Positions 16,463 to 38,391 are shown, counted from the first letter of the stretch. The stretch is 64,000 bases of DNA from Propionibacteriaceae bacterium (GCA_031272505.1 JAISTQ010000005.1:31572-95571), one strand, 5' to 3'. Program-made: numbers and translations. The notes: generated by a model from the letters alone, not told the origin.

Positions 16463-17677
16463 ATGGACACCACACCACGCCGTCATCGATTCAACTGGGT
16501 CTGGGGCCCGGCGTTCGTGGCGGCCATCGCGTATGTCGATCCGGGCAATGTGGCGGCCAACCTGAGCGCCGGCGCCGAATATGGCTACCTGCTGGTATGG
16601 GTGCTGGTGATGGCGAACGTGATGGCGATGCTGGTGCAATATCTGAGCGCGAAACTGGGTTTGGTTACGCAAAAGAGCCTCCCGGAACTGCTTGGGGAGC
16701 GGATGCGCAAGGCGCCCCGGCTGCTGTTTTGGGGACAGGCGGAGCTGGTGGCGGCGGCGACGGATCTGGCCGAGGTGATCGGCGGGGCGATCGCGCTGAA
16801 GATTCTTTTCGGGCTGCCGCTGCTGCTCGGCGGGGTGATCATCGGGGTGGTTTCGATGGGTTTGCTGGCGGTGCAGAACCGCCGCGGTGAAAAGAGTTTC
16901 GAATTTGTGGTGATCGGTTTACTGCTGATAATCACCATCGGGTTCGTGGCGGGCCTGTTTGTCTCACATGTTGATTGGCTGCAGGCGGCCGAGGGCGTGC
17001 TGCCGCGTTTTGACGGGACGGAGTCGGTGCTGCTGGCGGCGTCGATGCTGGGGGCGACGGTGATGCCGCACGCCATCTACGTCCATTCCGCGTTGACGAC
17101 CGAGCAGGCCGGGCACGAAGGCCGCAAGGCGCTGCCCCGGATGCTCCGGGTGACCCGCTGGGACGTCTTCGCCTCGATGCTGGTGGCGGGGGCCGTCAAC
17201 ATCGCGATGCTGCTGCTGGCGGCGGCGACGCTGCGCGGGCAGACCGGCACCGATTCCATCGAGGGGGCGTGGGAGGCGATCAACAACACCCTCGGCCCGG
17301 CGGTCGGCGTGCTCTTCGGGATCGGGCTGCTGGCCTCCGGCCTGGCCTCGACGTCGGTGGGCACCTTCGCGGGCGCGACCATCATGTCCGGCCTGCTGCG
17401 CGCCAAAGTGCCGCTGCTGGTGATGCGCCTGATCACCCTCGTCCCCGCGCTGGCGATCCTCGCCATCGACATCTCGCCCACCTGGGCGCTGGTGATTTCG
17501 CAGGTCTTCCTCTCCTTCGGCATCCCCTTCGCGCTCATCCCGCTGGTGGTGCTCACCTCGCAACGCAAAACCATGGGCCGCTTCGCCAACTCCATCCACC
17601 TGCAAGTCTTGGCCTGGATCGTGGTCGCCGCCATCGTCGCCCTCAACGTGCTGCTGATCATCCTCTCGTTTACGTAG
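16463..17677 (+). CDS. mntH: NRAMP-family divalent metal (Mn2+/Fe2+) transporter
   Basis: 'GPAFVAAIAYVDPGNVAANLSAGAEYGY' NRAMP signature and 'ATVMPHAIYVHSAL' consensus transport motif; about 11 TM segments. Confidence 0.9.
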   Translation: MDTTPRRHRFNWVWGPAFVAAIAYVDPGNVAANLSAGAEYGYLLVWVLVMANVMAMLVQYLSAKLGLVTQKSLPELLGERMRKAPRLLFWGQAELVAAATDLAEVIGGAIALKILFGLPLLLGGVIIGVVSMGLLAVQNRRGEKSFEFVVIGLLLIITIGFVAGLFVSHVDWLQAAEGVLPRFDGTESVLLAASMLGATVMPHAIYVHSALTTEQAGHEGRKALPRMLRVTRWDVFASMLVAGAVNIAMLLLAAATLRGQTGTDSIEGAWEAINNTLGPAVGVLFGIGLLASGLASTSVGTFAGATIMSGLLRAKVPLLVMRLITLVPALAILAIDISPTWALVISQVFLSFGIPFALIPLVVLTSQRKTMGRFANSIHLQVLAWIVVAAIVALNVLLIILSFT

Positions 17678-17680
17678 CAA

Positions 17681-17708
17681 GGCTGCCCCCCTGGTGAGGG
17701 AGGCAGCC
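17681..17708. terminator. GC-rich hairpin (GGCTGCCCCC...GGGAGGCAGCC) between the convergent mntH and GH3 genes
   Basis: Inverted repeat immediately after the mntH stop (17675-17677) and before the minus-strand gene stop (17728). No clear U-tract. Confidence 0.45.
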
Positions 17709-17727
17709 CTGCCTATGCACTTGTGTA

Positions 17728-20700
17728 CTACTTGACTTTCTTCGAAGTCTTGACGGCGGAGACCGGCGAATAGTACTTCACCTTGGAGACCGTCTTGTAG
17801 GACTGGACGCGGACCTGATAGGTCTTGCCCTTCGTCAGCTTCTTGATCACCAGCGAAGCCTTGGACTTCGCGACCGTCTTCGACTTCCAGGCGGTGGTGC
17901 CCTTCACCCGATAGGTGATCCGATAGCCCGTCACCGCCTGCGCGGCGGAGGCTTTCTTCCAAGCGACCTTCAGCTGCTTCTTGCCCACGGTGAGCGTCGG
18001 CGCGGCGAGCTTCTTCGGCAGAATCTTGAACGTCACGGTCTTGGTGCCCGCATACGCGCCCTTGCCGGTGATCGTCACCGTGCCCTTGCCGATGGCCTTG
18101 TTCGCGCCGGTCGACGTGATGGTGTAATCCGTCCCGACAACCAGCTTCTTGCCCGCCACCGTCAAGGTGAACCCGGAGGAGATCTTCTTGCCCGTCCAGG
18201 CTTTCGCCGCGGCGGTGACCGTCACCGACGACAACTGCGTCGGCGCGGACGCCTGGGCGACCGGCACCAGCGAGGCGATCGCCACCGAGAGATTGGTGAG
18301 CGCCGCCTGGAGTTGCTCAGCCGTCGAGTTCGGATTGGCGAGGACGGCTTTGGCCGCCTGCAATGCCGCCTCATAGGCCGCATATGACGGGGCGGTGTAG
18401 CCCGCCGAGGCGACCGGCGTCACCAGCAAGCTGGCCAACGCGCCACGTACCGTAGCCGGATCGGACGCGCTCGCCCCGCCGGCGGTGACCGTGATCGTCG
18501 CGGCGGCCGACTGATAGACGCCGTCGCGCACCGAGACCACGGTGACGCGCACCTGCCCGGCCTTGGCGGCCGTCAACACGCCCGCGCTGGTGACCGATGC
18601 GCCCGCGGTGTTGGTGTCCATCGGGGCGATGGAGTAGGTGTACTCCGCGCCCCAAGCCGCCGGGACCAGATCGGCGAGCAACTGGTATCCGCCCTTGGCG
18701 TCACCCAAGGTGACCGTCTGGTCGGGGAAGCGGACTTGCTCAGCCTGGATCACGGTGTGGGTGGCATCATCGGACACGTAGGCGCCGTCATAGACCACCA
18801 CCGGGAAGGTGTCGGACTTGGTGGAGCCGTCAGCCGTCACCGCGGCGGTGATTTGCGCCACGCCCGCCGAAATCGGAGCCACCGCGCCGTTGGCGTCAAC
18901 CTGGGCGACTGCCGGGTTCGACGAGGTGTAGGTGACCGTCACCGCAGACAAGTCGTAGAACGACTGGTCAGTGCGGGTCGCGGACAGGTTGGCGTGGATG
19001 ACGTTGCCGGGCGCGGCGGTGTTCAGCGTGGTCCCGTCGGGGACGACGGTCACCACGTCGAGGGCTGGCGCCAGCGTGCCGGACAGGTTGATGGTGGTGG
19101 TCAGCCCATTGTGTGCGGTGACCGGATCAACTACCGAGGACGTGCCGACTTGGAGCGTCCAAGCGCCCACGTCATACGTCCGCTTGCCCGCCACCGAATC
19201 CCAGAACCAGAGATCCGCGATGTCGAGCGGGATGGTGATCGTCTTCGTCTCATTGGCGGCGAACTCGACCTTCTGGAAGCCCTTCAGCTGCTTGTCCGCG
19301 CGCAGCGGATCGCCGGCCTTCGGGGAGGTGGCGTAGAGCTGGATGACTTCCTTGCCGGCCCGGCTGGAGTTGTTGGTGACGTTCACCGAGACCGTGATCG
19401 AATCGTTGGGCGTCACCGCCGTCTTCGACACCACCAGGTTGGAGTAGGTGAACGTCGAATATGACAGGCCATGGCCGAAGGGGTACGTCACCGGCCCAGT
19501 GAAGTACTGGTAGGTGCGGCCCAGCCGACCGTCAGTCGGGGTCAAGGTGTAATCGGTCGTCTCCCGCAGGTCGCGCACCGGATCTTCATAGTAGGTGAAG
19601 GGCAGCTTACCGCTCGGGTTGACGTCGCCCCAGAGCACCTCGGGGACGGTGTCCGCCTGATACTCGCCGTTGTACGTCGTCCAAATGATGGCCTTGCAGT
19701 TCTGGAACGGGGCGGTATCCACCTGGCCGACCGCCTGAATCCACACGATGGTGTTCGGGTTGAGGGCGCAAGCCTCATGGGCGATGTCCGACTGGAAGCG
19801 GGGCAACGCGATGGTCTTGCGATCCTGCTCTTCGGCCGAGTCCGAGGACTTGGTGGCCGTTGAGGTGCGGGTGCCCACATAGGCGATCACCGCGTCCGCG
19901 CTGCTGACGGCCGAGATGAGGGCCGGCTGCGCGTTGGCACCCAGGAAGGAGCCCACCGGCGTGGCATTGCGGTACTGGATGCGAATCCGCACCGTTTGCG
20001 CCGCCGCCGTGGGGCTGCCCAGGTTGATCGCCGCCGTGGTGGACGGGATGACCGAATAGCCGCTGGTGGTTTCGCCGACGTTGCTCTGCGGGGTGGTGCC
20101 CACGGAGGCCAAAGTGGCGGTGCTGGCACCGATTTGGATGTCGTAGTAGCCGCCCGGAGTTGGCGGGCCGCCGTACTGCTGCAAGCGGATGTACTGGGTG
20201 CCCGCCGGAATCGTGCCGGTGAACTCGACATAGCCTTCGATGGCGTCGCCGACGCCGACGAAGGAGCGGAAGCCGCCGCCCCAGATGGTCGCGCCTTGCT
20301 CATACCCGTCGAGCACTGCGGTGCCGGTGGCCTGCATCTGCTGCGCGGTGATCGCCCCAATGGCGGTAGGCGTCGGCGGGACGTCCGGATCGGCGCTGAA
20401 GAACTGAAGGCCGCCAATGGCGGGCTTGCCGGGCTCCTGCATCGCCGGGCTGTAGGTGACGTTGGCCGCGCCCAGCTTGTCCTCCAAGGCCACCTTGACG
20501 GTGCGGTTCACCAGATCAGCCGGGACAGTGGTGGGCGAATAGTCGCCGTGGACCAACTCGTCGCCAAACTCGCCGAGGAGCACCACGTTGGTGTCGGAGG
20601 CCGCGAGCGGGAGGATGCCGTCATTCTTCAACAGGACCACGCCCTCCTGGGAGGCCTGCTTGGCGACCGCGCGGTGTTCGGACGTCGAAATCTGGTTGCT

Positions 20701-21909
20701 CAGGTTGTAACTCGACCATGGGGTGGACGCGTCAAACTCACCGAGCCGCATCCGGACGGTGAAGGCGCGGGTCAAGTTGATGTTGAGTTCGTTCTCGGTG
20801 ATCAGGCCCTGCTGGATGGCGGGGATGATATTTGGCGCGTACTGGGTGCCGTTGCAATCGACGTCAGTGCCCGCCTTCAGCGACCAGGCGGTGCCTTCGG
20901 CGCGGGTCAGCGCCCGGCCCACAATCGCGGGAGCCCAGGCGTGACCGTCATTGTTGCCCTCCACGTGCGCGTCGGTCACGTCGTCGATGGCGCCGCAGTC
21001 CGAGGTGATGAAACCGTCAAACCCGAAAGTCCGGCGGGCCAACGTTTCCACGGTGTAGGTGTTAGCTGATTGCGGGATGCCGTTGACGGCGTTGTACGAC
21101 GTCATGCCGGAGGCGGCGCCGTAATCCTTCCAAAGCGTCTCGAAGGCGGGGGTGTAGTACTCGCGCAACTCGGCTTCGGTGAGGTTTGACGAGCCGTCAT
21201 GCCGGTTGTTCTCGGAGTTGTTCGCCAAGTAGTGCTTCGGGGTGGCGACTGACTTCAGGTAGCCGCCGTTGGTCTCGGTGGCACCTTGCAGGCCGGCGGT
21301 GAACGCGCCGCCAATCTGGCCGGCCAGGTATGGGTCTTCGCCGTAGGTTTCCTCAGCGCGGCCCCAGCGGGGATCGCGGTGCATGTTGATGGTGGGGGAC
21401 CACCACGTCAAGCCCCAGCGCCGATCCGCGTTGGCTGGGTCTTCCCAGTAGGCGCGACCTTCGTCAGAGGTGACTTTGGTGGTTTGGGCGACCAAGGTTG
21501 GGTTCCACGAGGAAGCCAAACCGAGGCCGGTGGGGAACTCGGTGGCCTCGCCGGTGACACCGAGGCTGGAACCGGACAGGGTGCCCGACGCCGCTGCGCG
21601 GGCCACGCCATGCAAGGCTTCATTCCAGTAAGTGAAAGCCTTCACGCCGAGCCGCGGGATGGCCGGGGCGACGACGTGCGGTGGGTTGGTGGAGCGCAAC
21701 TGCTCCGCTTTCTCCGCGAGCGTCATCCGGGAGACGAGATCCGCCGCTCGGACTTCAAAGGGAAGGGAGGTGTCCTGGTAGGGCAAGAGCGGTGCCGCCG
21801 GAGCGTCAGTCACGCTCACCAGGGAGGTGATGACGAGGCCGACAGCGGCTAAGCCTGCCAGTAATCGTTTGGGTTGGGTAATGGGTTTAAATGGGGTAAG
21901 GGACTTCAT
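17728..21909 (-). CDS. Secreted glycoside hydrolase family 3 enzyme (beta-glucosidase/beta-xylosidase type) with Big_2/FN3-like and lysine-rich C-terminal domains
   Basis: GH3 N-domain motifs 'YWNEALHGV', 'GFDGFITSDCGAIDD' and 'KHYLANNSENNRHDG'. Signal peptide 'MKSLTPFKPITQPKRLLAGLAAVGLVITSLVSV'. ATG 21909 has an AGGAG RBS; the ORF runs upstream to 22125 but lacks an RBS there. The C-terminal 150 aa are Lys-rich and FN3-like. Confidence 0.85.
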   Translation of the reverse strand: MKSLTPFKPITQPKRLLAGLAAVGLVITSLVSVTDAPAAPLLPYQDTSLPFEVRAADLVSRMTLAEKAEQLRSTNPPHVVAPAIPRLGVKAFTYWNEALHGVARAAASGTLSGSSLGVTGEATEFPTGLGLASSWNPTLVAQTTKVTSDEGRAYWEDPANADRRWGLTWWSPTINMHRDPRWGRAEETYGEDPYLAGQIGGAFTAGLQGATETNGGYLKSVATPKHYLANNSENNRHDGSSNLTEAELREYYTPAFETLWKDYGAASGMTSYNAVNGIPQSANTYTVETLARRTFGFDGFITSDCGAIDDVTDAHVEGNNDGHAWAPAIVGRALTRAEGTAWSLKAGTDVDCNGTQYAPNIIPAIQQGLITENELNINLTRAFTVRMRLGEFDASTPWSSYNLSNQISTSEHRAVAKQASQEGVVLLKNDGILPLAASDTNVVLLGEFGDELVHGDYSPTTVPADLVNRTVKVALEDKLGAANVTYSPAMQEPGKPAIGGLQFFSADPDVPPTPTAIGAITAQQMQATGTAVLDGYEQGATIWGGGFRSFVGVGDAIEGYVEFTGTIPAGTQYIRLQQYGGPPTPGGYYDIQIGASTATLASVGTTPQSNVGETTSGYSVIPSTTAAINLGSPTAAAQTVRIRIQYRNATPVGSFLGANAQPALISAVSSADAVIAYVGTRTSTATKSSDSAEEQDRKTIALPRFQSDIAHEACALNPNTIVWIQAVGQVDTAPFQNCKAIIWTTYNGEYQADTVPEVLWGDVNPSGKLPFTYYEDPVRDLRETTDYTLTPTDGRLGRTYQYFTGPVTYPFGHGLSYSTFTYSNLVVSKTAVTPNDSITVSVNVTNNSSRAGKEVIQLYATSPKAGDPLRADKQLKGFQKVEFAANETKTITIPLDIADLWFWDSVAGKRTYDVGAWTLQVGTSSVVDPVTAHNGLTTTINLSGTLAPALDVVTVVPDGTTLNTAAPGNVIHANLSATRTDQSFYDLSAVTVTYTSSNPAVAQVDANGAVAPISAGVAQITAAVTADGSTKSDTFPVVVYDGAYVSDDATHTVIQAEQVRFPDQTVTLGDAKGGYQLLADLVPAAWGAEYTYSIAPMDTNTAGASVTSAGVLTAAKAGQVRVTVVSVRDGVYQSAAATITVTAGGASASDPATVRGALASLLVTPVASAGYTAPSYAAYEAALQAAKAVLANPNSTAEQLQAALTNLSVAIASLVPVAQASAPTQLSSVTVTAAAKAWTGKKISSGFTLTVAGKKLVVGTDYTITSTGANKAIGKGTVTITGKGAYAGTKTVTFKILPKKLAAPTLTVGKKQLKVAWKKASAAQAVTGYRITYRVKGTTAWKSKTVAKSKASLVIKKLTKGKTYQVRVQSYKTVSKVKYYSPVSAVKTSKKVK

Positions 21910-22134
21910 AAGGGCTCCTAGTAGACTGCGCGACTTCGCGCACGCTCGAATGGCCACACCGCCAGCGGCCGTGGCCTTAAGCGCTGTTCCCAACCTATTG
22001 AAATCCGGCCTTGCCAGCGCCGGATACTGCCGGATTGGAAAACGTTTCGCAGTTGGCGATGACGGGAATTCGGGCATGTGCGCTGTGAGCGAACGGGGTT
22101 GGTTGCACAGTTTTTTCACGTACACTCGAATCTT

Positions 22135-24609
22135 GTGTGGACTGTAGGTTGGAAGCGGCGCGCCGTCGTGGCGCTGGGTGTGTTGGGCTTAATTCTGGTC
22201 GGTTTGCCGGTGGCTACGCCGCCCGCAGATGCTGGCTCGGAGATCGGCAGCCACTACATTCCATTGATCGGCGAAGACCATGTGACTCGCCTGGCGGCTT
22301 TGAGCAGCGAGGATTCCACCGCGGCGCAAGGGCGGCTGCGGGCGCAGAGCTTGACGCTCCCGACGTCATACGATCTGCGTAGCGAACACCCGGAATACTT
22401 GACGCCAGTGCGCAACCAGGGCAACTACGGCACCTGTTGGGCCTTCGGGGCGACCACGGTGGGCACCGCCTCGTTGGTGATTAACAACGTCACCGAAGAG
22501 ACCGTCGCGCTGTCGCCGAAACACCTGGCCTACGCCGCCAACGGCGAACACAACTTGCACTCGCTGGTCAACAATCTGTACACCGACGCTGACGATTCCC
22601 CGATGATGCTGGGCGGCAGCTTCGAACTCACGCTGGGGGCGTGGTCGAACTGGATGGGGCCGCGCCTCGAATCCGCCTTCCCGTACCCGACCTCCGGGCC
22701 GCCGGATCCCACCCCGATCACCTCCGCTGCCGAGATCTACACCGCCGATTACCACCTGGATGCGATGTACTCGCTGCCGGGACTTTATGCCAACGCGAAC
22801 AAGACGATCTTCTCGACGGGGAACCTGACGGCGGTCAAAGAGCACCTTTATAACGTCGGCCCGCTCACCATGGATGTGAAATCGAAGGGCGGCACGGTCA
22901 GTTGGTACACCAACACCGTCTCCGACCCGGATCACCTGGTCACCGTGGTGGGCTGGGATGACGACTACTCGCGCACCAACTTCTCGTCGAACACCAAGCA
23001 GCAGCCCGCCGGTAACGGGGCTTGGATCATCGAGAACTCCTACGGCGCGAACTCGGGCGAGAACGGCTACATGTACGTGTCGTACTACGACAAGTCGGTG
23101 GGCCTGTTCGACTACTACTCGCTCACCAGCGCCGACAACTACGACCTGAACCAATCGTGGTCGTTCAACAGCTACATCACCTGGGACAACGAGGATGCCA
23201 ACGGGCAGCGGCGCACCGACATTTACGCCGCGAACGTCTACACCGCAGTCGAAAAGCAGGCCGTCAAGGCGGTGATGGTCTCGAACTCGACGATCGGGAA
23301 CGACTACACCGTGGACGTCTACCGCGCGGTGGTGGACGAGCCTGATTCCGGGGTGCGGATTCCCAGCGCGCAGACTACCGTGACGAACGCCAAGTACGGC
23401 ATCGACACCGTGGAGCTTGCCGAGCCGGTGGTGGTGGCCGCTGGCGAGAAGTACGCGGTGGTGGTGCACTACACCCACGCCGGGACGACGAATTTCGCCG
23501 GCCCGCTGCTGGAGGCCGAGGTGATCTACGAGACGTCCACCTCAAACACCAAGTGGATGGAAGTGCCCGAATCCGCGAAGGTGCAGCCCGGCCAAAGCTA
23601 TGTCGGCAATGACGGCGAGGCTTGGAAAGACCTGGTCGAAGATGGCCGCTACTCCTACTTCGAGGTGGGCAACGTGGTGCTCCCGGCGTTGAGCGACTAC
23701 ACTGACGCCGATCCGGATCCGTTGCCGACGCCCACCCCGAGTGAGTCGCCGAGTGACACTCCGACCGACATCGCCACTGAGTCCCCGAGTGAGACTCCCA
23801 GCGAGTCTCCCAGTGAGTCGCCGAGTGAATCGCCGACAGTGAGCGTCACTCCCGATCCCACCATTGACCCGACGGTGACGCCGACCGTCACCACCACGCC
23901 GACGGTTACCACCACGCCGACGGTGACCACCACGCCGAAGCCGACTGCCACCGTCACGCCGACTGTGTCCGTCACGCCAAAACCGACGGCGACGGCCACC
24001 CCGACCCCCAGCAACACCCCGGCGAGCACCCCCACGTCATCGCAACAAGCCCCCGACCAGGGCAGCCCGGCGGACGATTCCGCCACCGTGACGACCGACG
24101 ATCCGCCCGCCCCGAAGGTGGACGCGGTGCGCGGCCCGCAGGCCATCGTCTATCTGAAGCAGAAGACTTCCTACCAGCTTTACGCGGCCGCCTACCTGGG
24201 TGCGGTGAAGACCGCCGAGAAGGTGACGTGGACCAGCTCCAACACCAAGGTGGCCACCGTCTCTTCCACCGGCAAGGTGAAGACCAAGGCCGTCAAGAGC
24301 ACCAAGAAGGTGGTGATCAGCGCCACCTCCAACGGGGTCGTGAAGCGGATCACCGTCTATGTGGTGCCGAAGGCCAAGAAGCTGGGCACGGTGAAGCTCT
24401 CCTACGCCGCCAGCATCGCGAAGGGGTATTCCGCCTTCGTCACCGTGAACACCGGCAAGGCCACCAACCCGAAGCTCACCTTCAAGGCCTCCAACTCGCG
24501 GATCTCCGTGGACAAGTACGGCAAGCTGGTGGCCAAGGCGAAGGGCAAGGCCAAACTCTACGTGAAGGTGAACGGACACAAGTTCACCAAGGCCATCACC
24601 GTCCGCTAA
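22135..24609 (+). CDS. Secreted papain-like (C1 family) cysteine peptidase with Pro/Thr/Ser-rich linker and C-terminal Big_2 Ig-like domains
   Basis: Catalytic-Cys motif 'NQGNYGTCWAFG' and the downstream 'VGWDD...AWIIENSYG' His/Asn region. Signal peptide after the GTG 22135 start, assigned by alignment with the paralog. Linker with SESP and TPTVTT repeats. C-terminal 'VTWTSSNTKVATVSSTGKV...ITVYV' Big_2 domain. Confidence 0.8.
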   Translation: MWTVGWKRRAVVALGVLGLILVGLPVATPPADAGSEIGSHYIPLIGEDHVTRLAALSSEDSTAAQGRLRAQSLTLPTSYDLRSEHPEYLTPVRNQGNYGTCWAFGATTVGTASLVINNVTEETVALSPKHLAYAANGEHNLHSLVNNLYTDADDSPMMLGGSFELTLGAWSNWMGPRLESAFPYPTSGPPDPTPITSAAEIYTADYHLDAMYSLPGLYANANKTIFSTGNLTAVKEHLYNVGPLTMDVKSKGGTVSWYTNTVSDPDHLVTVVGWDDDYSRTNFSSNTKQQPAGNGAWIIENSYGANSGENGYMYVSYYDKSVGLFDYYSLTSADNYDLNQSWSFNSYITWDNEDANGQRRTDIYAANVYTAVEKQAVKAVMVSNSTIGNDYTVDVYRAVVDEPDSGVRIPSAQTTVTNAKYGIDTVELAEPVVVAAGEKYAVVVHYTHAGTTNFAGPLLEAEVIYETSTSNTKWMEVPESAKVQPGQSYVGNDGEAWKDLVEDGRYSYFEVGNVVLPALSDYTDADPDPLPTPTPSESPSDTPTDIATESPSETPSESPSESPSESPTVSVTPDPTIDPTVTPTVTTTPTVTTTPTVTTTPKPTATVTPTVSVTPKPTATATPTPSNTPASTPTSSQQAPDQGSPADDSATVTTDDPPAPKVDAVRGPQAIVYLKQKTSYQLYAAAYLGAVKTAEKVTWTSSNTKVATVSSTGKVKTKAVKSTKKVVISATSNGVVKRITVYVVPKAKKLGTVKLSYAASIAKGYSAFVTVNTGKATNPKLTFKASNSRISVDKYGKLVAKAKGKAKLYVKVNGHKFTKAITVR
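23881..23934 (+). repeat. 3 x 18-nt in-frame repeat encoding (P-T-V-T-T-T) in the peptidase linker; SESP-type repeats at about 23760-23835
   Basis: ccgaccgtcaccaccacg / ccgacggttaccaccacg / ccgacggtgaccaccacg. Confidence 0.8.
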
Positions 24610-24658
24610 TCCGCCCCCTCCGGTTGGCCTCATAGGAACGGCCGGTAGACTAGGGGCG

Positions 24659-26848
24659 ATGTTGAGCCAGGGTTGGAAACAGCGTTTCGGCGTCGCGGGG
24701 GCTGCGCTGGCGTTGCTCCTTGTCTCGTTGCCCGCAGTATCCGCACCCGCTGATGAGGCCAATGAAATCAACGGCAGCTTCATCGCGCTGGTCTCCCCGG
24801 ATCGGAAGACGCGCCTGGCCGTCCTGGAAGCCGCAGAAGGCGAAGCCGGGGGGTTGCGCGGGCCAGCGGCGGCCACTTTGCCCGCCCAATATGATCTGCG
24901 CACGGCCAAGCCGCAGTTGGTGGACGCGGTGCGCGACCAGGGGAATTACGGCACCTGTTGGGGTTTCGGGGCCACCGCCGTCGCGTCGGCCTCGCTGGTG
25001 CACAACTCGCTGGCCAGCTCCGTCGTCCCGCTTTCGCCGAAGCATCTGGCCTACGCGGTGAGCGGCGCCTTCGGGCTGCATTCCACGGTGTCTGACCTGT
25101 ACACCAATTCCAGCGAGGCCCCGATGATGCTGGGCGGCTATTTCGAGTTGACGATGAGCGCCTGGTCGAACTGGATGGGCCCGCGCACCGAAGCCAGCTT
25201 CCCCTACCCCACGTCCGGGCCGCCCGATCCGTCACCGATCACCACCAAGGCGCAGATCTACTCCGCCGACTACCACTTGGACGAGGCATACACCCTGCCG
25301 GGGCCGTACGCGGCGGGCTCGAACAAGTTGAACTCGGACTTCGTGGAAGCGAACGTGACGGCCGTCAAAGAGCACATCTACAACGTGGGCCCGCTGGCGA
25401 TGGACATCAAGTCCAAGGGCACGGTGGTGAACTGGTACACCGGGTCGAAAACCGACGCCGATCACATGGTCACCGTGGTGGGTTGGGACGACACCTTCTC
25501 GCAGGACAACTTCTCGACCAAACCCGCCGGGAATGGCGCTTGGATCGCGCAGAACTCCTACGGCGCGACGTCCGGCAGTGGCGGCTACATCTACGTCTCC
25601 TATTACGACAAGTCCGTCAACTTCTTTGATTACTATTCGCTGACGAGCGCCGCTGACTACGGCGTGAACCAGTCCTGGGCGCTGAACAGCGACATCACCT
25701 GGGACAACGAGGACACCAACAACCAGCGTCGCCGCGACATTTACGCGGCCAACGTCTATACCGCGAGCGCCAACCAGTCGGTGAAGGCGGTGCTGGTCTC
25801 GAACACCACGATCGGGAACAGCTACACCGTCGACATCTACCGCAACGTCTCCACCACGCCCAGCACCGGGGTACGGATCCCGGAGGCCCAAGCCACCCGC
25901 AGCAACGCCAAGTACGGCGTGGAGACGGTGGAGTTGGCCACGCCGGTGGTGGTCGCGGCGGGGGAGAAGTACGCGGTCGTCGTCCACTACACCAACACCA
26001 AGAGCGAGTTCTCCGGGCCGATGCTGGAAGCCGAGGTCGTCTACGCGTCGTCCACCTCTAACGTGAAGACGATGGAGGTGCCCGCGGACGCCAAGATCGT
26101 CGCCGGGCAGAGCTACATCGGCTATGACGGCAGCACCTGGAAGGATCTCGCCACCGAGGGCCGCTTCAACGAAAGCCAAATCGGGAACCTGATGCTGCCC
26201 GCACTCGGCGACTACACCTCCGCGCCGCCGCAGCCGCTGCCCACCCCGACCGAGACGGCGACGGCCAGCCCGTCCCCGACGCCGTCCATCTCCACCACCG
26301 TCCCGAGCAGCACCGAAACTGTGGGCGCTCCGGCACCCACCCAGACGACGGCCAAGGTGGACGCGATCCGCGGCCCGCAGTCGAAGGTGTACCTGAAGCA
26401 GAAAACCACCTACCAGCTCTATGCGGCCGCCTACCTGGGCGCGACGAAGACCAGCCAGAAGGTGACGTGGAAGAGTTCGAACACCAAGATCGCCACCGTC
26501 TCGTCCACCGGCAAGGTGAAGACCAAGGCGGTCAAATCCACCAAGAAGGTGGTGATCAGCGCCAGCTCGAACGGCATCACCAAGAAGATCACCGTCTACG
26601 TGGTCCCGAAGGCCAAGAAACTCGGCACCGTGGTGCTCTCCTACGCCGCCAAACTCTCCGTCGGCTACTCCAGCTTCGTCACCGTGAACGCCGGCAAGGC
26701 CACCAACCCCAAGCTCACCTTCAAAACCTCCAACTCCCACCTGGTCGTCAACAAATACGGCCAAACCACCGCCAAATCCAAAGGCTCCGCCAAACTCTAC
26801 GTCTACGTCGGCTCCCACCGCATCACCAAAACCATCACCATCCGCTGA
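24659..26848 (+). CDS. Secreted papain-like (C1 family) cysteine peptidase, tandem paralog of 22135-24609
   Basis: 'DQGNYGTCWGFG', same domain order, signal peptide 'MLSQGWKQRFGVAGAALALLLVSLPAVSAPA'. The C-terminal Big_2 region is about 80% identical in DNA to the upstream copy. Confidence 0.85.
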   Translation: MLSQGWKQRFGVAGAALALLLVSLPAVSAPADEANEINGSFIALVSPDRKTRLAVLEAAEGEAGGLRGPAAATLPAQYDLRTAKPQLVDAVRDQGNYGTCWGFGATAVASASLVHNSLASSVVPLSPKHLAYAVSGAFGLHSTVSDLYTNSSEAPMMLGGYFELTMSAWSNWMGPRTEASFPYPTSGPPDPSPITTKAQIYSADYHLDEAYTLPGPYAAGSNKLNSDFVEANVTAVKEHIYNVGPLAMDIKSKGTVVNWYTGSKTDADHMVTVVGWDDTFSQDNFSTKPAGNGAWIAQNSYGATSGSGGYIYVSYYDKSVNFFDYYSLTSAADYGVNQSWALNSDITWDNEDTNNQRRRDIYAANVYTASANQSVKAVLVSNTTIGNSYTVDIYRNVSTTPSTGVRIPEAQATRSNAKYGVETVELATPVVVAAGEKYAVVVHYTNTKSEFSGPMLEAEVVYASSTSNVKTMEVPADAKIVAGQSYIGYDGSTWKDLATEGRFNESQIGNLMLPALGDYTSAPPQPLPTPTETATASPSPTPSISTTVPSSTETVGAPAPTQTTAKVDAIRGPQSKVYLKQKTTYQLYAAAYLGATKTSQKVTWKSSNTKIATVSSTGKVKTKAVKSTKKVVISASSNGITKKITVYVVPKAKKLGTVVLSYAAKLSVGYSSFVTVNAGKATNPKLTFKTSNSHLVVNKYGQTTAKSKGSAKLYVYVGSHRITKTITIR

Positions 26849-27293
26849 CGCCCCCGCAGGCGAATCCTCCTGCCACCTCAGCCCGTTCAGATTTGAGTTC
26901 TTGCACTTTTCGGCGGCGGATCACGACAACAACTCATCACGGTAGAACGGGGACGGAACCACGGGCACAGAGTGCTGTGGGAGGTGGGACGAAAGGCGGG
27001 CGGGCGGTGGCTGCCCGCGAAGGCGAGAGGCAAGGCAACCACGGGTGAACGCCCGCGGACTCTTCGTTCAACGCGGGCCGTTGGGTGTGCATGACGAGAC
27101 ACTTGGCCCGCAAGGTGGGGATGGGGGGAGGAGGGAAACTACTCAATCGTTTTCCAAGAAAGGCCGATTCTGCAATCTATTGAGTAGTTTTGGGTTCCCA
27201 CAGGGGGTGCGGGAGGTATGGGTGTGTCGGCGCGGATCGGGCGGCTATGGCGGGTGGAATGGCAATGGTGAGGGGGGTAGGTGGGGCTAAGCT

Positions 27294-28193
27294 GTGCGGG
27301 TGAACTCGGAGCGGCAGGGGTTGGTGTATGGGGTGGTCGCGTACACGTTCTGGGCGGTTTTTCCGCTGTATTTCTTGTTGGTGGCGGCGGCGAGTTCGAT
27401 TGAGATCATCTGGCATCGGATCGCGTGGTCGTTGGTGTTCTCGTTGGTTGGGGTGCTGCTGGTGCGGCAGTGGCGGCAGTTGCTCGCCACCGCGAAGAAC
27501 TGGCGGTACTCGGGGCGGTTGGCCATCGCCGGGGTGTTGGTGGCGACGAACTGGTTCCTGTACGTCTACTCGGTGCAGAACGGGATGCTGGTCGACGCCT
27601 CGATGGGCTACTTCGTCAATCCGCTGGTGACGGCGCTGCTCGCCATCATCTTTCTTGGGGAGCGGCCGCGCGCGTTGCAGTTGACGGCCTTGGCGTTCGG
27701 CTCGTCGGCGGTGGTGGTGATCTCCATCTGGTACGGGCAGATCCCGTGGATGTCGCTCTCCTTGGCGTTCTCATTCGGTTTCTATGGGCTGATCAAAAAG
27801 CAGGTCTCGCAAGAGGTGCCGCCGCTGATCGGGCTCACCCTGGAGACGGCCCCGATCACGCCGATTGCGGTGGGGTTCATCATCTTCCTGCAGGTGACGG
27901 GCACCGGCACGCTCACCAGCGTCAGCCCGCTGCACACGGTGGCGCTCTGCTGCGCCGGCATCGTGACCGCCGGCCCGCTGCTGCTCTATGCGGCCTCCGC
28001 GAAACGCATCCCGCTCACCACGCTGGGGTTGCTGCAATACATCTGCCCAATCGGGCAGTTCCTGCTCGCCATCACCGTCTTCGGCGAAGCGATGCCGCCG
28101 GCCCGCTGGATCGGCTTCGTGTTGGTGTGGATCGCGTTGATAATCCTGACGGCCGACCTACTCGTGCATCACAGCGAATCGCCGAAATCCTGA
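27294..28193 (+). CDS. rarD: RarD (EamA/DMT superfamily) membrane protein
   Basis: 10-TM protein; the 'VYSVQNGMLVDASMGYFVNPLV' and 'LLQYICPIGQFLLAI' blocks match RarD. Start codon uncertain (GTG 27294, 27300 or 27324). Confidence 0.8.
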   Translation: MRVNSERQGLVYGVVAYTFWAVFPLYFLLVAAASSIEIIWHRIAWSLVFSLVGVLLVRQWRQLLATAKNWRYSGRLAIAGVLVATNWFLYVYSVQNGMLVDASMGYFVNPLVTALLAIIFLGERPRALQLTALAFGSSAVVVISIWYGQIPWMSLSLAFSFGFYGLIKKQVSQEVPPLIGLTLETAPITPIAVGFIIFLQVTGTGTLTSVSPLHTVALCCAGIVTAGPLLLYAASAKRIPLTTLGLLQYICPIGQFLLAITVFGEAMPPARWIGFVLVWIALIILTADLLVHHSESPKS

Positions 28194-29617
28194 CGGAACT
28201 TGGCCACCAGCTCGGCCGGCCAATCGCCAATCGGACGCAGCCGCCCATAGAAGAAGCGCAGGATCTCCGGCTCCTCGTCCCACTCCAGGCCGCCGACGAT
28301 CCGACGGTTGGCATAGAGCCAGCGGATGCGGTCAATCGCGTAGTTGACCTGGGAGAGGGTGAAGACGCGCCGCGGCATCGCGAGGCGCAGCAACTCCATG
28401 TCGGCCAGCGGCTCGGTGCCGTCCGGCTCCCGCTGCTCGCTCATGGTGCCACGCTCCATGCCGCGCACACCCGAGGCGATGTACACCGCCGCCGTCAACG
28501 AGGCTGACGGATACTGCCGCTGATCCACGTGGTCGAGGAAACGCATCGCGTCCAGGTGCGCGCCCAGGCCACCGGGCGGCGTGACCACCGGAATGTTGTA
28601 CTTCTGCAACTCGGTGACCATGTGGGCGATGAAGTTCGGCCCCTGGTTGATCATGTCTTCGTCGAGCGTCTCGTCCAGGCCGATCACGATGGCCTCCATC
28701 TCGCGCACGCTCATGCCGCCGTACGTCAAGAAGCCCTCGTACATCGGCACGAAGCCGCGCATCCGCTTGTACAGTTCCTCATTCGAGGTGCAGATGCCGC
28801 CGCCGCGGCCGAAGCCGAGCTTGCGGAACGAGGAGTAGACGATGTCGCTCAGCGAGGCCATCTCCAGCACGATCTCGTGGATCGACATGTCCTTGCAGGC
28901 GGCTTCGCGGGTCTTGATGAAGTGCAGGTTGTCGGCCAGCAGCGAGGCGTCCAGCACCAGCAGGATGCCGTGCTTGTGGCAAGTCTCGGAAACCTCGCGC
29001 AGGTTCGCCAGCGAGAACGGCTGGCCACCGATGAGGTTCGTGCCCGCCTCCATCCGCACGAACGGAATCCGATCCGCGCCGATCTCCTCCACCAGCGCCT
29101 CCAGCCGCGCGCAATCGAACTCGCCCTTGAAGGGATCGTCGTTGGAGACGTCCAGCCCCTCCTTCTTGATGAACTCGACGACGCGGGCGCCATCGCGCAC
29201 CAGGTGGGCTTTGGTGGTGGTGAAGTGGTAGTTCATCGGGACGACGTCACCGGGCTTGATGAACGTCACCGAGAGGATGTTCTCGGCGGCGCGGCCCTGG
29301 TGGGTGGGCAGGAAGTACTTCAGCCCGAAAAACTCCTGCAGCTTGGCGTGCAGCCTGAAGAAGGTGGCTGAGCCCGCGTAGGCGTCGTCAGCGAGCAGCA
29401 TCGCCGCCTGCTGCCGGTCGCTCATCGCGTTCACGCCCGAATCGGTGAGCATGTCCAGGAAGACGTCTTTGTTCTCCAGCAGGAACGAGTTGTAGCCGGC
29501 GGCGGCCATCGCCTGGGCGCGCTGCTCGATGGGCAGCAGGGTGAGCTTTTGGATAATGCGGACTTTGTGCATCTCCAGCGGAAAGGTCTCGCCGGAGAAA
29601 TAGCTGACATTGGACAT
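28169..29617 (-). CDS. tnaA: Tryptophanase / tyrosine phenol-lyase family beta-eliminating lyase (PLP-dependent)
   Basis: 'NSFLLENKDVFLDMLTDSGVNAMS', 'FTTTKAHL' and 'SFRKLGFGRGGGICTSN' blocks including the PLP-Lys region. AAGGAG RBS 5 nt before ATG 29617. 25-nt convergent overlap with rarD. Confidence 0.85.
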   Translation of the reverse strand: MSNVSYFSGETFPLEMHKVRIIQKLTLLPIEQRAQAMAAAGYNSFLLENKDVFLDMLTDSGVNAMSDRQQAAMLLADDAYAGSATFFRLHAKLQEFFGLKYFLPTHQGRAAENILSVTFIKPGDVVPMNYHFTTTKAHLVRDGARVVEFIKKEGLDVSNDDPFKGEFDCARLEALVEEIGADRIPFVRMEAGTNLIGGQPFSLANLREVSETCHKHGILLVLDASLLADNLHFIKTREAACKDMSIHEIVLEMASLSDIVYSSFRKLGFGRGGGICTSNEELYKRMRGFVPMYEGFLTYGGMSVREMEAIVIGLDETLDEDMINQGPNFIAHMVTELQKYNIPVVTPPGGLGAHLDAMRFLDHVDQRQYPSASLTAAVYIASGVRGMERGTMSEQREPDGTEPLADMELLRLAMPRRVFTLSQVNYAIDRIRWLYANRRIVGGLEWDEEPEILRFFYGRLRPIGDWPAELVAKFRQDFGDSL

Positions 29618-29668
29618 GTCACTCCTTCGTGGGTTACTGACAACGTGCAATGATACCGCGCGAAACGG

Positions 29669-37530: not shown

Positions 37531-37563
37531 GCAAGCCCAGCCCGCACCAGTACAATCGGGTGC

Positions 37564-38391
37564 GTGCGCAGAGTTTGGTTGATCCTCGCGAGTGTGCCGC
37601 TGTTGGCCGCTTGCGCGCAGGTGTACCCCGCCAGCCCGGCACCGGCTCCGAGCGTCAGCCCAAGTGCAACACCGACGGTGGTGGTTCCCAGTGTGGAGCC
37701 ATCACCGTCGGTCTCTTTCACGGTGGAGCCAGTGACGCCCACCCCAATCCCTTCCGTCACGCCGACTCCTTCCGTCACCCCCACTCCCACCCCCAGTGAA
37801 ACTCCCAGCGGCGAGCCCACGCCCGACACCCGCGAGGGTAAAGAACTGGACGAGCCGTACACCGTCAACGGCATCATCTTGATCAACAAGCAGCACCCGG
37901 TCTCGAAAAACTACGTGCCCGACGAAATCACCAAGCAAGGTTTGACGCCGGAGGCCGACAAGGCCGTCACCAAACTCATGAAAGCCGCCCGGGCCGACGG
38001 GATCACTATCAAGATCCGCGAATCGTACCGCTCGTATGCGACCCAGAAGACCATCTACAACCGGGCCTTAAAGACCTATGAGACCGAGGAATTGGCGAAG
38101 CGCTACAACGCGGCGCCGGGCAAGAGCGAGCACCAATCCGGCCTTGCGGTGGATTTCTGGGACGGCAAGCTGCGCGGCCAGGGCATCGCGAAGACGGCGC
38201 TGGGCAAATGGCTGTGGAAGCACTCCTGGGAATATGGGTACATCCTGCGCTACCCGCCGGATGACAAGGAGAAGATCACCGGCTACATCTATGAGCCGTG
38301 GCATTTCCGCTATGTCGGCGTGGAGGTCGCCAAGGAATTCGGGGCGAACAGCACGCTCACCCTCGAAGAGTATCTGGGCGTGTTGGATTAA
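37564..38391 (+). CDS. Lipoprotein, M15 family D-alanyl-D-alanine carboxypeptidase (VanY-like)
   Basis: Lipobox 'LLAACAQ', a Pro/Thr/Ser linker, and 'SEHQSGLAVDF' with 'EPWHFRYVG' zinc-binding motifs of VanY/M15B. Confidence 0.8.
   Translation: MRRVWLILASVPLLAACAQVYPASPAPAPSVSPSATPTVVVPSVEPSPSVSFTVEPVTPTPIPSVTPTPSVTPTPTPSETPSGEPTPDTREGKELDEPYTVNGIILINKQHPVSKNYVPDEITKQGLTPEADKAVTKLMKAARADGITIKIRESYRSYATQKTIYNRALKTYETEELAKRYNAAPGKSEHQSGLAVDFWDGKLRGQGIAKTALGKWLWKHSWEYGYILRYPPDDKEKITGYIYEPWHFRYVGVEVAKEFGANSTLTLEEYLGVLD

Follow-up and report, generated by a model that had tools for sequence, protein, structure and literature searches.

Lysine-rich Ig-like and FN3 tails as possible cell-surface retention modules on a GH3 glycosidase and two Cwp84-type cysteine proteases of a Propionibacteriaceae bacterium

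Within a 64,000-nucleotide stretch from a Propionibacteriaceae bacterium (GCA_031272505.1, JAISTQ010000005.1:31572-95571; the whole stretch is called the window below), positions 17728 to 26848 hold three long, intact open reading frames (ORFs) whose products share very lysine-rich C-terminal tails, and the role of these tails is the subject of this study. The three ORFs have a gene-like codon signature, with a GC content at third codon positions (GC3) of 0.85 to 0.88 (window GC 63-66%). A gene for a family GH3 glycosidase (17728-21909, minus strand, 1393 residues), hereafter GH3, is divergent from two tandem genes for papain-like cysteine proteases, C1a (22135-24609, plus strand, 824 residues) and C1b (24659-26848, plus strand, 729 residues). 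The gap between GH3 and C1a is 225 bp; C1b begins 49 bp after C1a, and these two genes probably form one operon. Lengths and layout are those given by an earlier, sequence-only reading of the window, which had also assigned GH3, C1, Big_2, and fn3 domains; a check with Pfam hidden Markov models upheld all of these, every match in the three proteins exceeding its gathering score. The secretory signal peptides that it proposed are likewise supported by eye, all three N-termini being Sec-like (basic n-region, hydrophobic core, Ala-X-Ala-like end).

The GH3 protein is identical to JGI protein P0054 and consists of a signal peptide, a GH3 N-domain, a GH3 C-domain with an insertion, an Fn3-like domain, an Ig-like/FIVAR stalk, and a lysine-rich Ig and FN3 tail, all encoded on the minus strand. 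Its start is the ATG at 21909, with AGGAG 8 nt upstream. The NCBI model of this gene (MDR1790177.1, 1363 residues) starts 30 codons further downstream, so that window positions 21820-21909 and with them the signal peptide are lost; based on the JGI model and the AGGAG sequence, we favour the longer start. The signal peptide, read from the sequence and with an approximate boundary, occupies about residues 1-36 (MKSLTPFKPITQPKRLLAGLAAVGLVITSLVSVTDA; 21802-21909). Pfam places the Glyco_hydro_3 N-terminal barrel (PF00933, 109.9 bits) at 20758-21561, Glyco_hydro_3_C (PF01915, 125.9 bits) at 19459-20640, and the Fn3-like domain (PF14310, 64.6 bits) at 19135-19350. The motif GFITSDC, found in the barrel sequence, includes Asp304 (codon 20998-21000), which we take to be the nucleophile from general knowledge of the S/T-D-W/C motif in the GH3 family. 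The C-domain match spans 394 residues for a 200-position profile, as it is interrupted by an insertion of ~200 residues (455-665; 19915-20547) for which neither Pfam nor a sequence search of the PDB gave a match. A PA14 domain occupies the equivalent point of the fold in some GH3 enzymes, and the insertion may be an accessory beta-domain. The stalk (18247-19134) combines acidic Ig-like (Big-like/Big_2) sequence with a FIVAR helical domain (18268-18402, 29.3 bits) and contains 0-2 Lys and 2-9 Asp+Glu per 60 residues.

Among solved structures, the nearest relatives of GH3 are xylan 1,4-beta-xylosidases (7vc6, E 1e-87) and beta-glucosidases. It shares with such enzymes (7vc6; Xyl3A NF041776) the three-domain core of barrel, alpha/beta sandwich, and Fn3-like domain as well as the SDC motif, and is distinguished from them by the C-domain insertion and by a C-terminal extension of ~470 residues comprising the stalk, FIVAR, and the lysine-rich tail. 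We therefore place it, on sequence similarity, as a predicted exo-enzyme of the beta-xylosidase/beta-glucosidase branch. Its best NCBIfam equivalog, Xyl3A NF041776, scores 453.8 bits, far under the cut-off of 1250, so that the assignment reaches the branch and not a specificity.

C1a and C1b are 66% identical and are predicted to be Cwp84-type papain-like C1A proteases with a PF18560 lectin-like domain. The sequence-only reading was right about the C1A family and missed the Cwp84 type. Both proteins, encoded on the plus strand, run from a signal peptide through a putative short pro-region, the C1A and lectin-like domains, and a Pro/Thr/Ser-rich linker to a lysine-rich tail of two Big_2 domains. 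The Peptidase_C1 matches lie at 22357-23088 in C1a (59.9 bits) and 24878-25603 in C1b (55.0 bits; cut-off 20.7), and the PF18560 matches at 23203-23643 (68.3 bits) and 25727-26164 (65.2 bits; cut-off 27), respectively; Big_2 scores are 26.6 bits in C1a and 26.9 bits in C1b. Columns for the oxyanion Gln, the catalytic Cys and His, and the supporting Asn are invariant in a 16-sequence alignment, corresponding to Gln95, Cys101 (22435-22437), His267 (22933-22935), and Asn301 in C1a, and to Gln94, Cys100 (24956-24958), His269 (25463-25465), and Asn299 in C1b. Some 40-45 residues between signal peptide and C1 domain have no Pfam match in either protein, be it to the cathepsin-type I29 propeptide domain or to any other. 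The linker measures ~140 residues in C1a (23695-24114) and 48 in C1b, suggesting that its length is evolutionarily labile. Tandem Repeats Finder located tandem DNA repeats in the C1a linker at 23737-24005, with periods of 12, 18, 36, and 42 bp, which code for SESP and TPTVTT repeats.

C1b matches NCBI MDR1790179.1 at 100% identity; the entry is named 'lectin like domain-containing protein [Propionibacteriaceae bacterium]'. The start of C1a is uncertain: the GTG at 22135 was picked by alignment with the C1b start, and the longest ORF begins at 22078. The start codon is without an obvious ribosome-binding site. With either start codon, C1a is absent from a collection of 15 billion proteins, and it is not among the matches of its neighbour C1b; public databases may list the gene under another annotation or as a pseudogene.

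The closest characterized counterpart is Cwp84 of Clostridioides difficile (paralog Cwp13), a surface-associated C1A protease responsible for maturation of the S-layer precursor SlpA (PDB 4ci7, 4d59; PMC4089489). Cwp84 consists of a signal peptide, a short propeptide, a cathepsin-L-like domain, a lectin-like domain, and three wall-binding repeats (PMC4089489), and PF18560 is the domain defined from it. It is the best solved relative of our proteases (4d59/4ci7, E 1e-16, phmmer), the alignment covering the C1A and lectin-like domains. C1a and C1b share with it the signal peptide, a short putative pro-region, the Gln/Cys/His/Asn set, and PF18560 placed directly after C1A; an Asp of C1a aligns with Asp320 in the S2 pocket of Cwp84 (alignment read by eye), and, like C. 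difficile, the present organism carries a pair of paralogs. In contrast to Cwp84, the three CWB2 repeats are replaced in C1a and C1b by a Pro/Thr linker and two lysine-rich Big_2 domains. Similarity is also low (relatives elsewhere are 24-33% identical to C1b), and the host is a high-GC actinobacterium with no S-layer or SLH gene among the roughly 20 ORFs of the window that were scanned with Pfam. As enzymes, the three proteins are ordinary GH3 and Cwp84-like C1A members, and public databases already give the correct family names.

A profile scan for the protease in 185,579 genomes, one per species, returned 513 confirmed relatives. The best 80 of these 513 are at most 32% identical and belong to Lachnospiraceae, Ruminococcus, Oscillospiraceae, Synergistaceae, Methanosarcina, and others. 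Actinomycetota are absent from these 80, which fits the earlier remark that secreted C1A proteases are uncommon in Actinobacteria; among the matches listed, the only actinobacterial relatives come from Propionibacteriaceae metagenome-assembled genomes (MAGs). Cwp84-type proteases seem rare in Actinomycetota, represented by a small paralog group in Propionibacteriaceae MAGs.

What sets the three proteins apart from their families is the C-terminus. The GH3 tail (residues 1222-1393, 172 residues; 17728-18246, minus strand) combines an MBG-like Ig domain with an FN3 domain (fn3 Pfam E 8e-11, 36.5 bits), contains 33 K, 3 R, 1 D, and 0 E, has a net charge of +35 and an isoelectric point (pI) of 10.7, and ends in ...KTSKKVK. 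The tails of C1a (residues 661-824; 24115-24609, plus strand) and C1b (residues 566-729; 26354-26848, plus strand) are each 164 residues long and consist of two Big_2 domains; the former has 30 K, 4 R, and 3 D+E (net +31, pI 10.5) and the latter 28 K, 3 R, 1 D, and 0 E (net +30, pI 10.5). Lysine makes up 17-19% of the tails versus 3.7% in the 35 other ORFs of the window, Asp+Glu amount to 1-3 residues per tail versus a background of 11.8%, and the K/(K+R) ratio is 0.88-0.92 versus 0.38. The lysine-rich C-termini described by the sequence-only reading are thus real, 28-33 Lys in 164-172 residues being far beyond chance against these ORFs. When the whole window was scanned in segments of 60 residues with a threshold of 8 Lys, the tails ranked first with 13-16 Lys, and three other ORFs barely reached the threshold (8-9). 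The next lysine-richest stretch, with 18 Lys in 164 residues, belongs to a VanY-type D-Ala-D-Ala carboxypeptidase (37531-38391, plus strand); it also contains acidic residues and so is without the tail signature. The heads of the three proteins are acidic (pI 4.3-4.8, net -19 to -47), and each protein is an electrostatic dipole of acidic head, spacer, and basic tail.

The tails are predicted to be folded domains and not disordered low-complexity sequence, since AlphaFold2 models show two beta-sandwiches both in the GH3 tail (mean pLDDT 95.2) and in the C1b tail (mean pLDDT 86.6). Fold searches matched the GH3 tail to Ig-FN3 tandems and the C1b tail to LigA Big_2 domains and S-layer Ig-like domains; for both tail types the structures retrieved were generic Ig/FN3/Big_2 folds, with nothing informative on function. 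Homology between the two tail types was rejected (hhalign probability 0.3%). The single architecture proposed earlier for all three proteins calls for two corrections, the first being that the GH3 (Ig and FN3) and protease (two Big_2) tails share no detectable homology. Second, the proposed low-complexity linker is present in the proteases, but GH3 has the folded Ig-like/FIVAR stalk in its place.

No LPXTG-like motif near the C-terminus, no C-terminal hydrophobic segment, and no SLH (PF00395) or CWB2 match was found in GH3, C1a, or C1b, extending to CWB2 the absence of LPXTG and SLH that had been noted before. All three proteins show one feature expected of non-covalent polycationic wall-retention modules, a functional class and not a sequence family, namely a high-pI C-terminal module on a secreted protein without other anchors. 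The lack of any other anchoring signal could also point to covalent attachment, in which a lysine, for example the conserved C-terminal Lys of the FN3-type tail (...KKVK), is linked to peptidoglycan by an L,D-transpeptidase as in Braun lipoprotein, or in which isopeptide bonds are formed. GH3-type tails do end in Lys in 18 of 20 aligned sequences (alignment A2) and in Arg in 2 of 20. However, Arg is the last residue of the Big_2-type tails in both C1a and C1b, the neighbourhood contains no gene for a transpeptidase or transglutaminase, and the surface of beta-strands adequately explains the alternating lysine pattern; such linkage is purely speculative, and we consider it extremely improbable.

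The lysine coat appears to have been selected rather than imported. The GC3 of the tails is 0.92 in GH3 and 0.95 in C1a (range 0.92-0.95), at or above that of the rest of each gene, and AAG accounts for 29 of 30 lysine codons in the C1a tail, 30 of 33 in the GH3 tail, and 18 of 28 in the C1b tail. These values argue that the composition is not a trace of AT-rich foreign DNA, and recent import from an AT-rich donor was rejected as the source of the lysine richness. Selection is further suggested by the high K/(K+R) ratio of the tails, by the occurrence of one composition on two unrelated folds, and by the distribution of charge within proteins: internal Ig-like domains are acidic, unlike the tails of the same proteins, and in large relatives the net charge is negative or near neutral and rises to about +15 to +26 per 80 residues at the C-terminus only. 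Finally, the tail is the best-conserved segment of the protease pair, with 77% identity between C1a and C1b versus 66% in the catalytic and lectin domains. Identity is 0.70 at third codon positions versus 0.84 at positions 1 and 2, which indicates purifying selection rather than recent gene conversion.

These data also bear on whether the tails are passive spacer or stability domains, with a lysine content left over from low-GC Firmicutes donors or reflecting an adaptation for solubility without a binding role. The nearest protease relatives and most tail carriers are indeed low-GC Clostridia, in which lysine is generally abundant, and the generic folds returned by the structure searches would suit passive domains. 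A leftover or neutral composition is, however, difficult to reconcile with tails that have fully adopted the codon usage of the host and yet keep 17-19% Lys with almost no Arg or acidic residues, with acidic or neutral domains of the same fold inside the same proteins, with the tail being the most conserved part of the C1a/C1b pair, and with the convergence of two unrelated folds. A passive role is therefore distinctly unlikely.

Relatives of the proteases and of the tails show how the modules are combined. The full architecture of C1a and C1b is present in lysine-rich-tailed C1 and lectin-like proteases of Lachnospiraceae and other Clostridia, several of which align along nearly all of C1b; examples have Big_2 tails (L004, L007, L014, L022, and L046) or FN3 tails (L002, L006, L011, and L053), and a further one (P0192) is among the top matches of a profile of the Ig and FN3 tail. 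Unlike C1a and C1b, these proteins (at most 32% identical) are encoded in low-GC genomes, where lysine is cheap. The architecture is common in Lachnospiraceae. We sorted the C-termini of 75 complete C1 and lectin-like relatives by simple sequence-pattern rules, not by HMMs. By these rules, 15-16 of the 75 have a lysine-rich, acid-poor Big_2 or FN3 tail, 7 a dockerin-like motif, 6 DUF4214-like repeats, and 6 a membrane segment or LPXTG-like signal; 12 have no C-terminal extension and 29 fall into other types. The lysine-rich tail was combined with another anchor type in none of the 75. SLH and CWB2 also hold the C-terminal position in homologs of C1a and C1b.

The DUF4214-like repeat (…GR..D..G...W…EF..I…YG[LIV]) recurs as an alternative C-terminal module among the proteins and loci retrieved (P0181, L008, L019, L031, L037, L040, and L076), occurs on both C1 and lectin-like proteases and giant proteins with MBG repeats, and may be another anchoring module.

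Within Propionibacteriaceae, a third C1 and lectin-like paralog (P0002/P0049, MDR1790741.1) has an accession of the same series and lies on a contig of 62 kb, and so appears to come from the MAG of the cluster; over the catalytic region it shares 44% identity with C1a and C1b. Its tail has no Big_2 domain and is of the GH3 type, with Ig and FN3 domains that are 45% identical to the GH3 tail. In another Propionibacteriaceae MAG, the same FN3-type tail is attached to a protein whose CAP match is weak and below threshold (P0053), and a fragment from a Bifidobacteriaceae MAG (P0058) ends in a lysine-rich tail of two Big_2 domains. A more distant Propionibacteriaceae homolog (P0003) has an SLH C-terminus and is located among other SLH proteins. 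In the Propionibacteriaceae MAG GCA_009781145.1 (L082, 10001-13402 and 16902-22083), the C1 and lectin-like homolog ends in SLH, and two more SLH proteins, of which one has LGFP repeats, are encoded within 10 kb of it. Anchor currencies thus seem to differ between related genomes for one and the same protease family. A complete protein of 265 residues from a JGI metagenome (P0030) consists only of a signal peptide, an extremely acidic Asp/Glu/Tyr-rich linker of ~45 residues, and a lysine-rich Ig and FN3 tail, a natural tail-only construct with an anionic brush.

At E<=1e-3 the profile of the Ig and FN3 tail retrieved 79,587 cluster representatives, of which 16,341 remained at E<=1e-30; both counts are upper bounds because the profile also matches generic FN3 domains (titin, neogenin). 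In the top matches the unit is located 2-7 or about 95-100 residues from the C-terminus. Giant multi-repeat proteins dominate this search, which is informative on family size and C-terminal placement and not on the diversity of enzymes. Word-indexed searches with the tails gave few, mostly fragmentary matches, missed the GH3 protein and C1b, and were not used for counts. Most carriers of lysine-rich tails encountered here belong to the Clostridia, and a few are anaerobic Actinomycetota (MAGs of Propionibacteriaceae and Bifidobacteriaceae); the module appears to be very widespread, especially in Lachnospiraceae.

We propose that the polycationic tails retain the three enzymes non-covalently on the surface of the producing cell, as the sequence-only reading had suggested, and put the probability of this at roughly 55%. 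Four lines of indirect evidence support the proposal: the polarity of charge within each protein, selection acting on the tail sequences, re-use of the tails as modules, and the fact that they and known anchors exclude each other at the C-terminus. As to the last of these, dockerin, SLH, LPXTG or membrane anchors, or CWB2 take the C-terminus of homologs and none occurs together with a lysine-rich tail. Following Sec export and cleavage of the signal peptide, the polycationic tail would leave the translocon last and would bind, mainly by charge, to polyanionic polymers of the envelope, for example acids of the teichoic or teichuronic type, acidic polysaccharides of the wall, or lipoglycans. The spacer, a Pro/Thr linker in the proteases and the Ig/FIVAR stalk in GH3, would span the wall and hold the acidic catalytic head outward at the cell surface, so that sugars and peptides could be released beside the transporters of the cell itself. 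Envelope binding, its ligand, the surface location, and the substrates of the three enzymes are all points that we infer.

The main rival to retention on the producer is that the tails target external polyanions (acidic polysaccharides of plants or microbes, mucin-type glycans, extracellular DNA, or the surfaces of other cells) and gather enzymes that are released freely, either on their substrates or in a biofilm matrix; passive spacing and covalent attachment are minor in comparison. The charge data fit external targets equally well, Ig-like and FN3 modules attached to glycosidases can bind substrate, and small tail-only proteins such as P0030 could be free binders. Yet the tail types are found on proteins with unrelated substrates (a glycosidase, proteases, the protein with the weak CAP match, and LRR/amidase-like giants), they always occupy the extreme C-terminus after a stalk or a linker of the wall-spanning type, and the modules with which they alternate are cell anchors and not carbohydrate-binding modules. 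External targeting is for these reasons unlikely.

Several points nevertheless weigh against retention on the cell surface. Literature searches yielded no work in which lysine-rich Big_2/FN3 tails were studied as wall anchors, and the terms 'Big' and 'fibronectin type III' are absent from the text of a broad review of Gram-positive surface display (PMC5817068). Ig-like and FN3 domains also act as spacers or substrate-binding modules, and their positional equivalence with anchors is circumstantial. Sortase or SLH systems could exist elsewhere in a genome of which 64 kb was seen, and the low Xyl3A score does not fix the substrate of GH3.

Retention by such tails would be a variant of a known principle. 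Lactobacillus SLAP, Listeria GW, CWB2, and SLH modules share the proposed features of a C-terminal, often high-pI module that binds anionic wall polymers without sortase. Unlike these, the tails have no sequence or fold kinship to any of them, Pfam placing them in none of these families, and are ordinary Ig-like/FN3 beta-sandwiches for which charge is the sole distinction. The layout of sortase substrates, with a functional domain, a Pro-rich wall-spanning region, and an anchor, is matched by head, linker or stalk, and tail. The layout also matches the display proposed for the surface mannanase RiGH26 of Roseburia intestinalis, which, like GH3, is a secreted glycosidase without a sortase signal (PMC6385246). 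RiGH26 belongs to a different enzyme family, and the role of its Ig-like domains is itself a proposal (PMC6385246).

More tentatively, lysine-coated tandems of Ig-like and FN3 domains might represent an unrecognised and very widespread class of sortase-independent envelope anchors, defined by surface charge and not by fold, in which Big_2, MBG-like, and FN3 domains have converged and which is interchangeable with dockerin, SLH, CWB2, and LPXTG. Whatever its role, the tail is the point worth keeping from this locus, as one lysine coat is placed on two unrelated beta-sandwiches, kept by purifying selection in a high-GC genome, re-used on different exoenzymes, apparently within a single genome, and located where homologs have known anchors; the persistence of the charge signature against a background of 65% GC makes the locus a clean test case. 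If the tails are envelope anchors, many proteins now named Ig-like/FN3 domain-containing, from Clostridia of the gut and rumen and from some Actinomycetota, could be annotated as surface-displayed. This would bear on how bacteria keep polymer-degrading enzymes and their products near the cell, and would provide a simple charge-based display tag.

The sequence-only reading had gone further and interpreted the three genes as an island for the degradation of host glycoproteins (mucin or IgA). On this view, glycans would be removed by the glycosidase and the peptide laid bare would be cleaved by the proteases. The genes are adjacent and all three products are predicted to be secreted, and Cwp84 is reported to degrade some host matrix proteins in vitro. 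This role is nonetheless highly unlikely. GH3 is nearest to beta-xylosidases and beta-glucosidases, and the roughly 20 Pfam-scanned ORFs of the window contained no glycosidase family typical of mucin degradation. The P0049 paralog has no glycosidase neighbour and is surrounded by housekeeping genes (BioY, NAD kinase, and an SMC-type ATPase gene). Further, the relatives are found chiefly in fibre degraders of the rumen or gut, in Synergistaceae, and in methanogens, a set typical of communities that degrade fibre or are of the anaerobic digester type. The term island does not apply either: GC and GC3 of the cluster equal those of its surroundings, housekeeping genes flank it, its borders contain neither a tRNA nor a mobile gene, and the sole tRNA of the window is 20 kb away. 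The locus is a gene cluster in the core chromosome and not a compositionally distinct island.

The flanking genes encode ClpX, PTS enzyme I, glycogen phosphorylase, Nramp, EamA, a beta-eliminating lyase, GntR, RpiB, and transketolase, with IF-2 and LeuA at greater distance. Both promoters of the divergent genes are presumed, from position only, to lie in the GH3/C1a gap (21910-22134), although a scan of 17400-27400, gap included, found no sigma-70-like promoter consensus; no Rfam or regulatory RNA match was obtained in the window, again including the gap. At the other end of GH3, the 50-bp gap to the convergent Nramp (mntH-like) gene (17678-17727) contains an inverted repeat, read from the sequence, that could form a hairpin (GGCTGCC...GGCAGCC). 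It is a possible two-way terminator for both genes, although it was not detected by a terminator consensus scan. Downstream of C1b by ~1.3 kb, past the EamA transporter gene, a beta-eliminating lyase of the tryptophanase or tyrosine phenol-lyase family (28169-29650, minus strand) adjoins a GntR/UTRA regulator and hints at aromatic amino-acid fermentation with production of indole or phenol.

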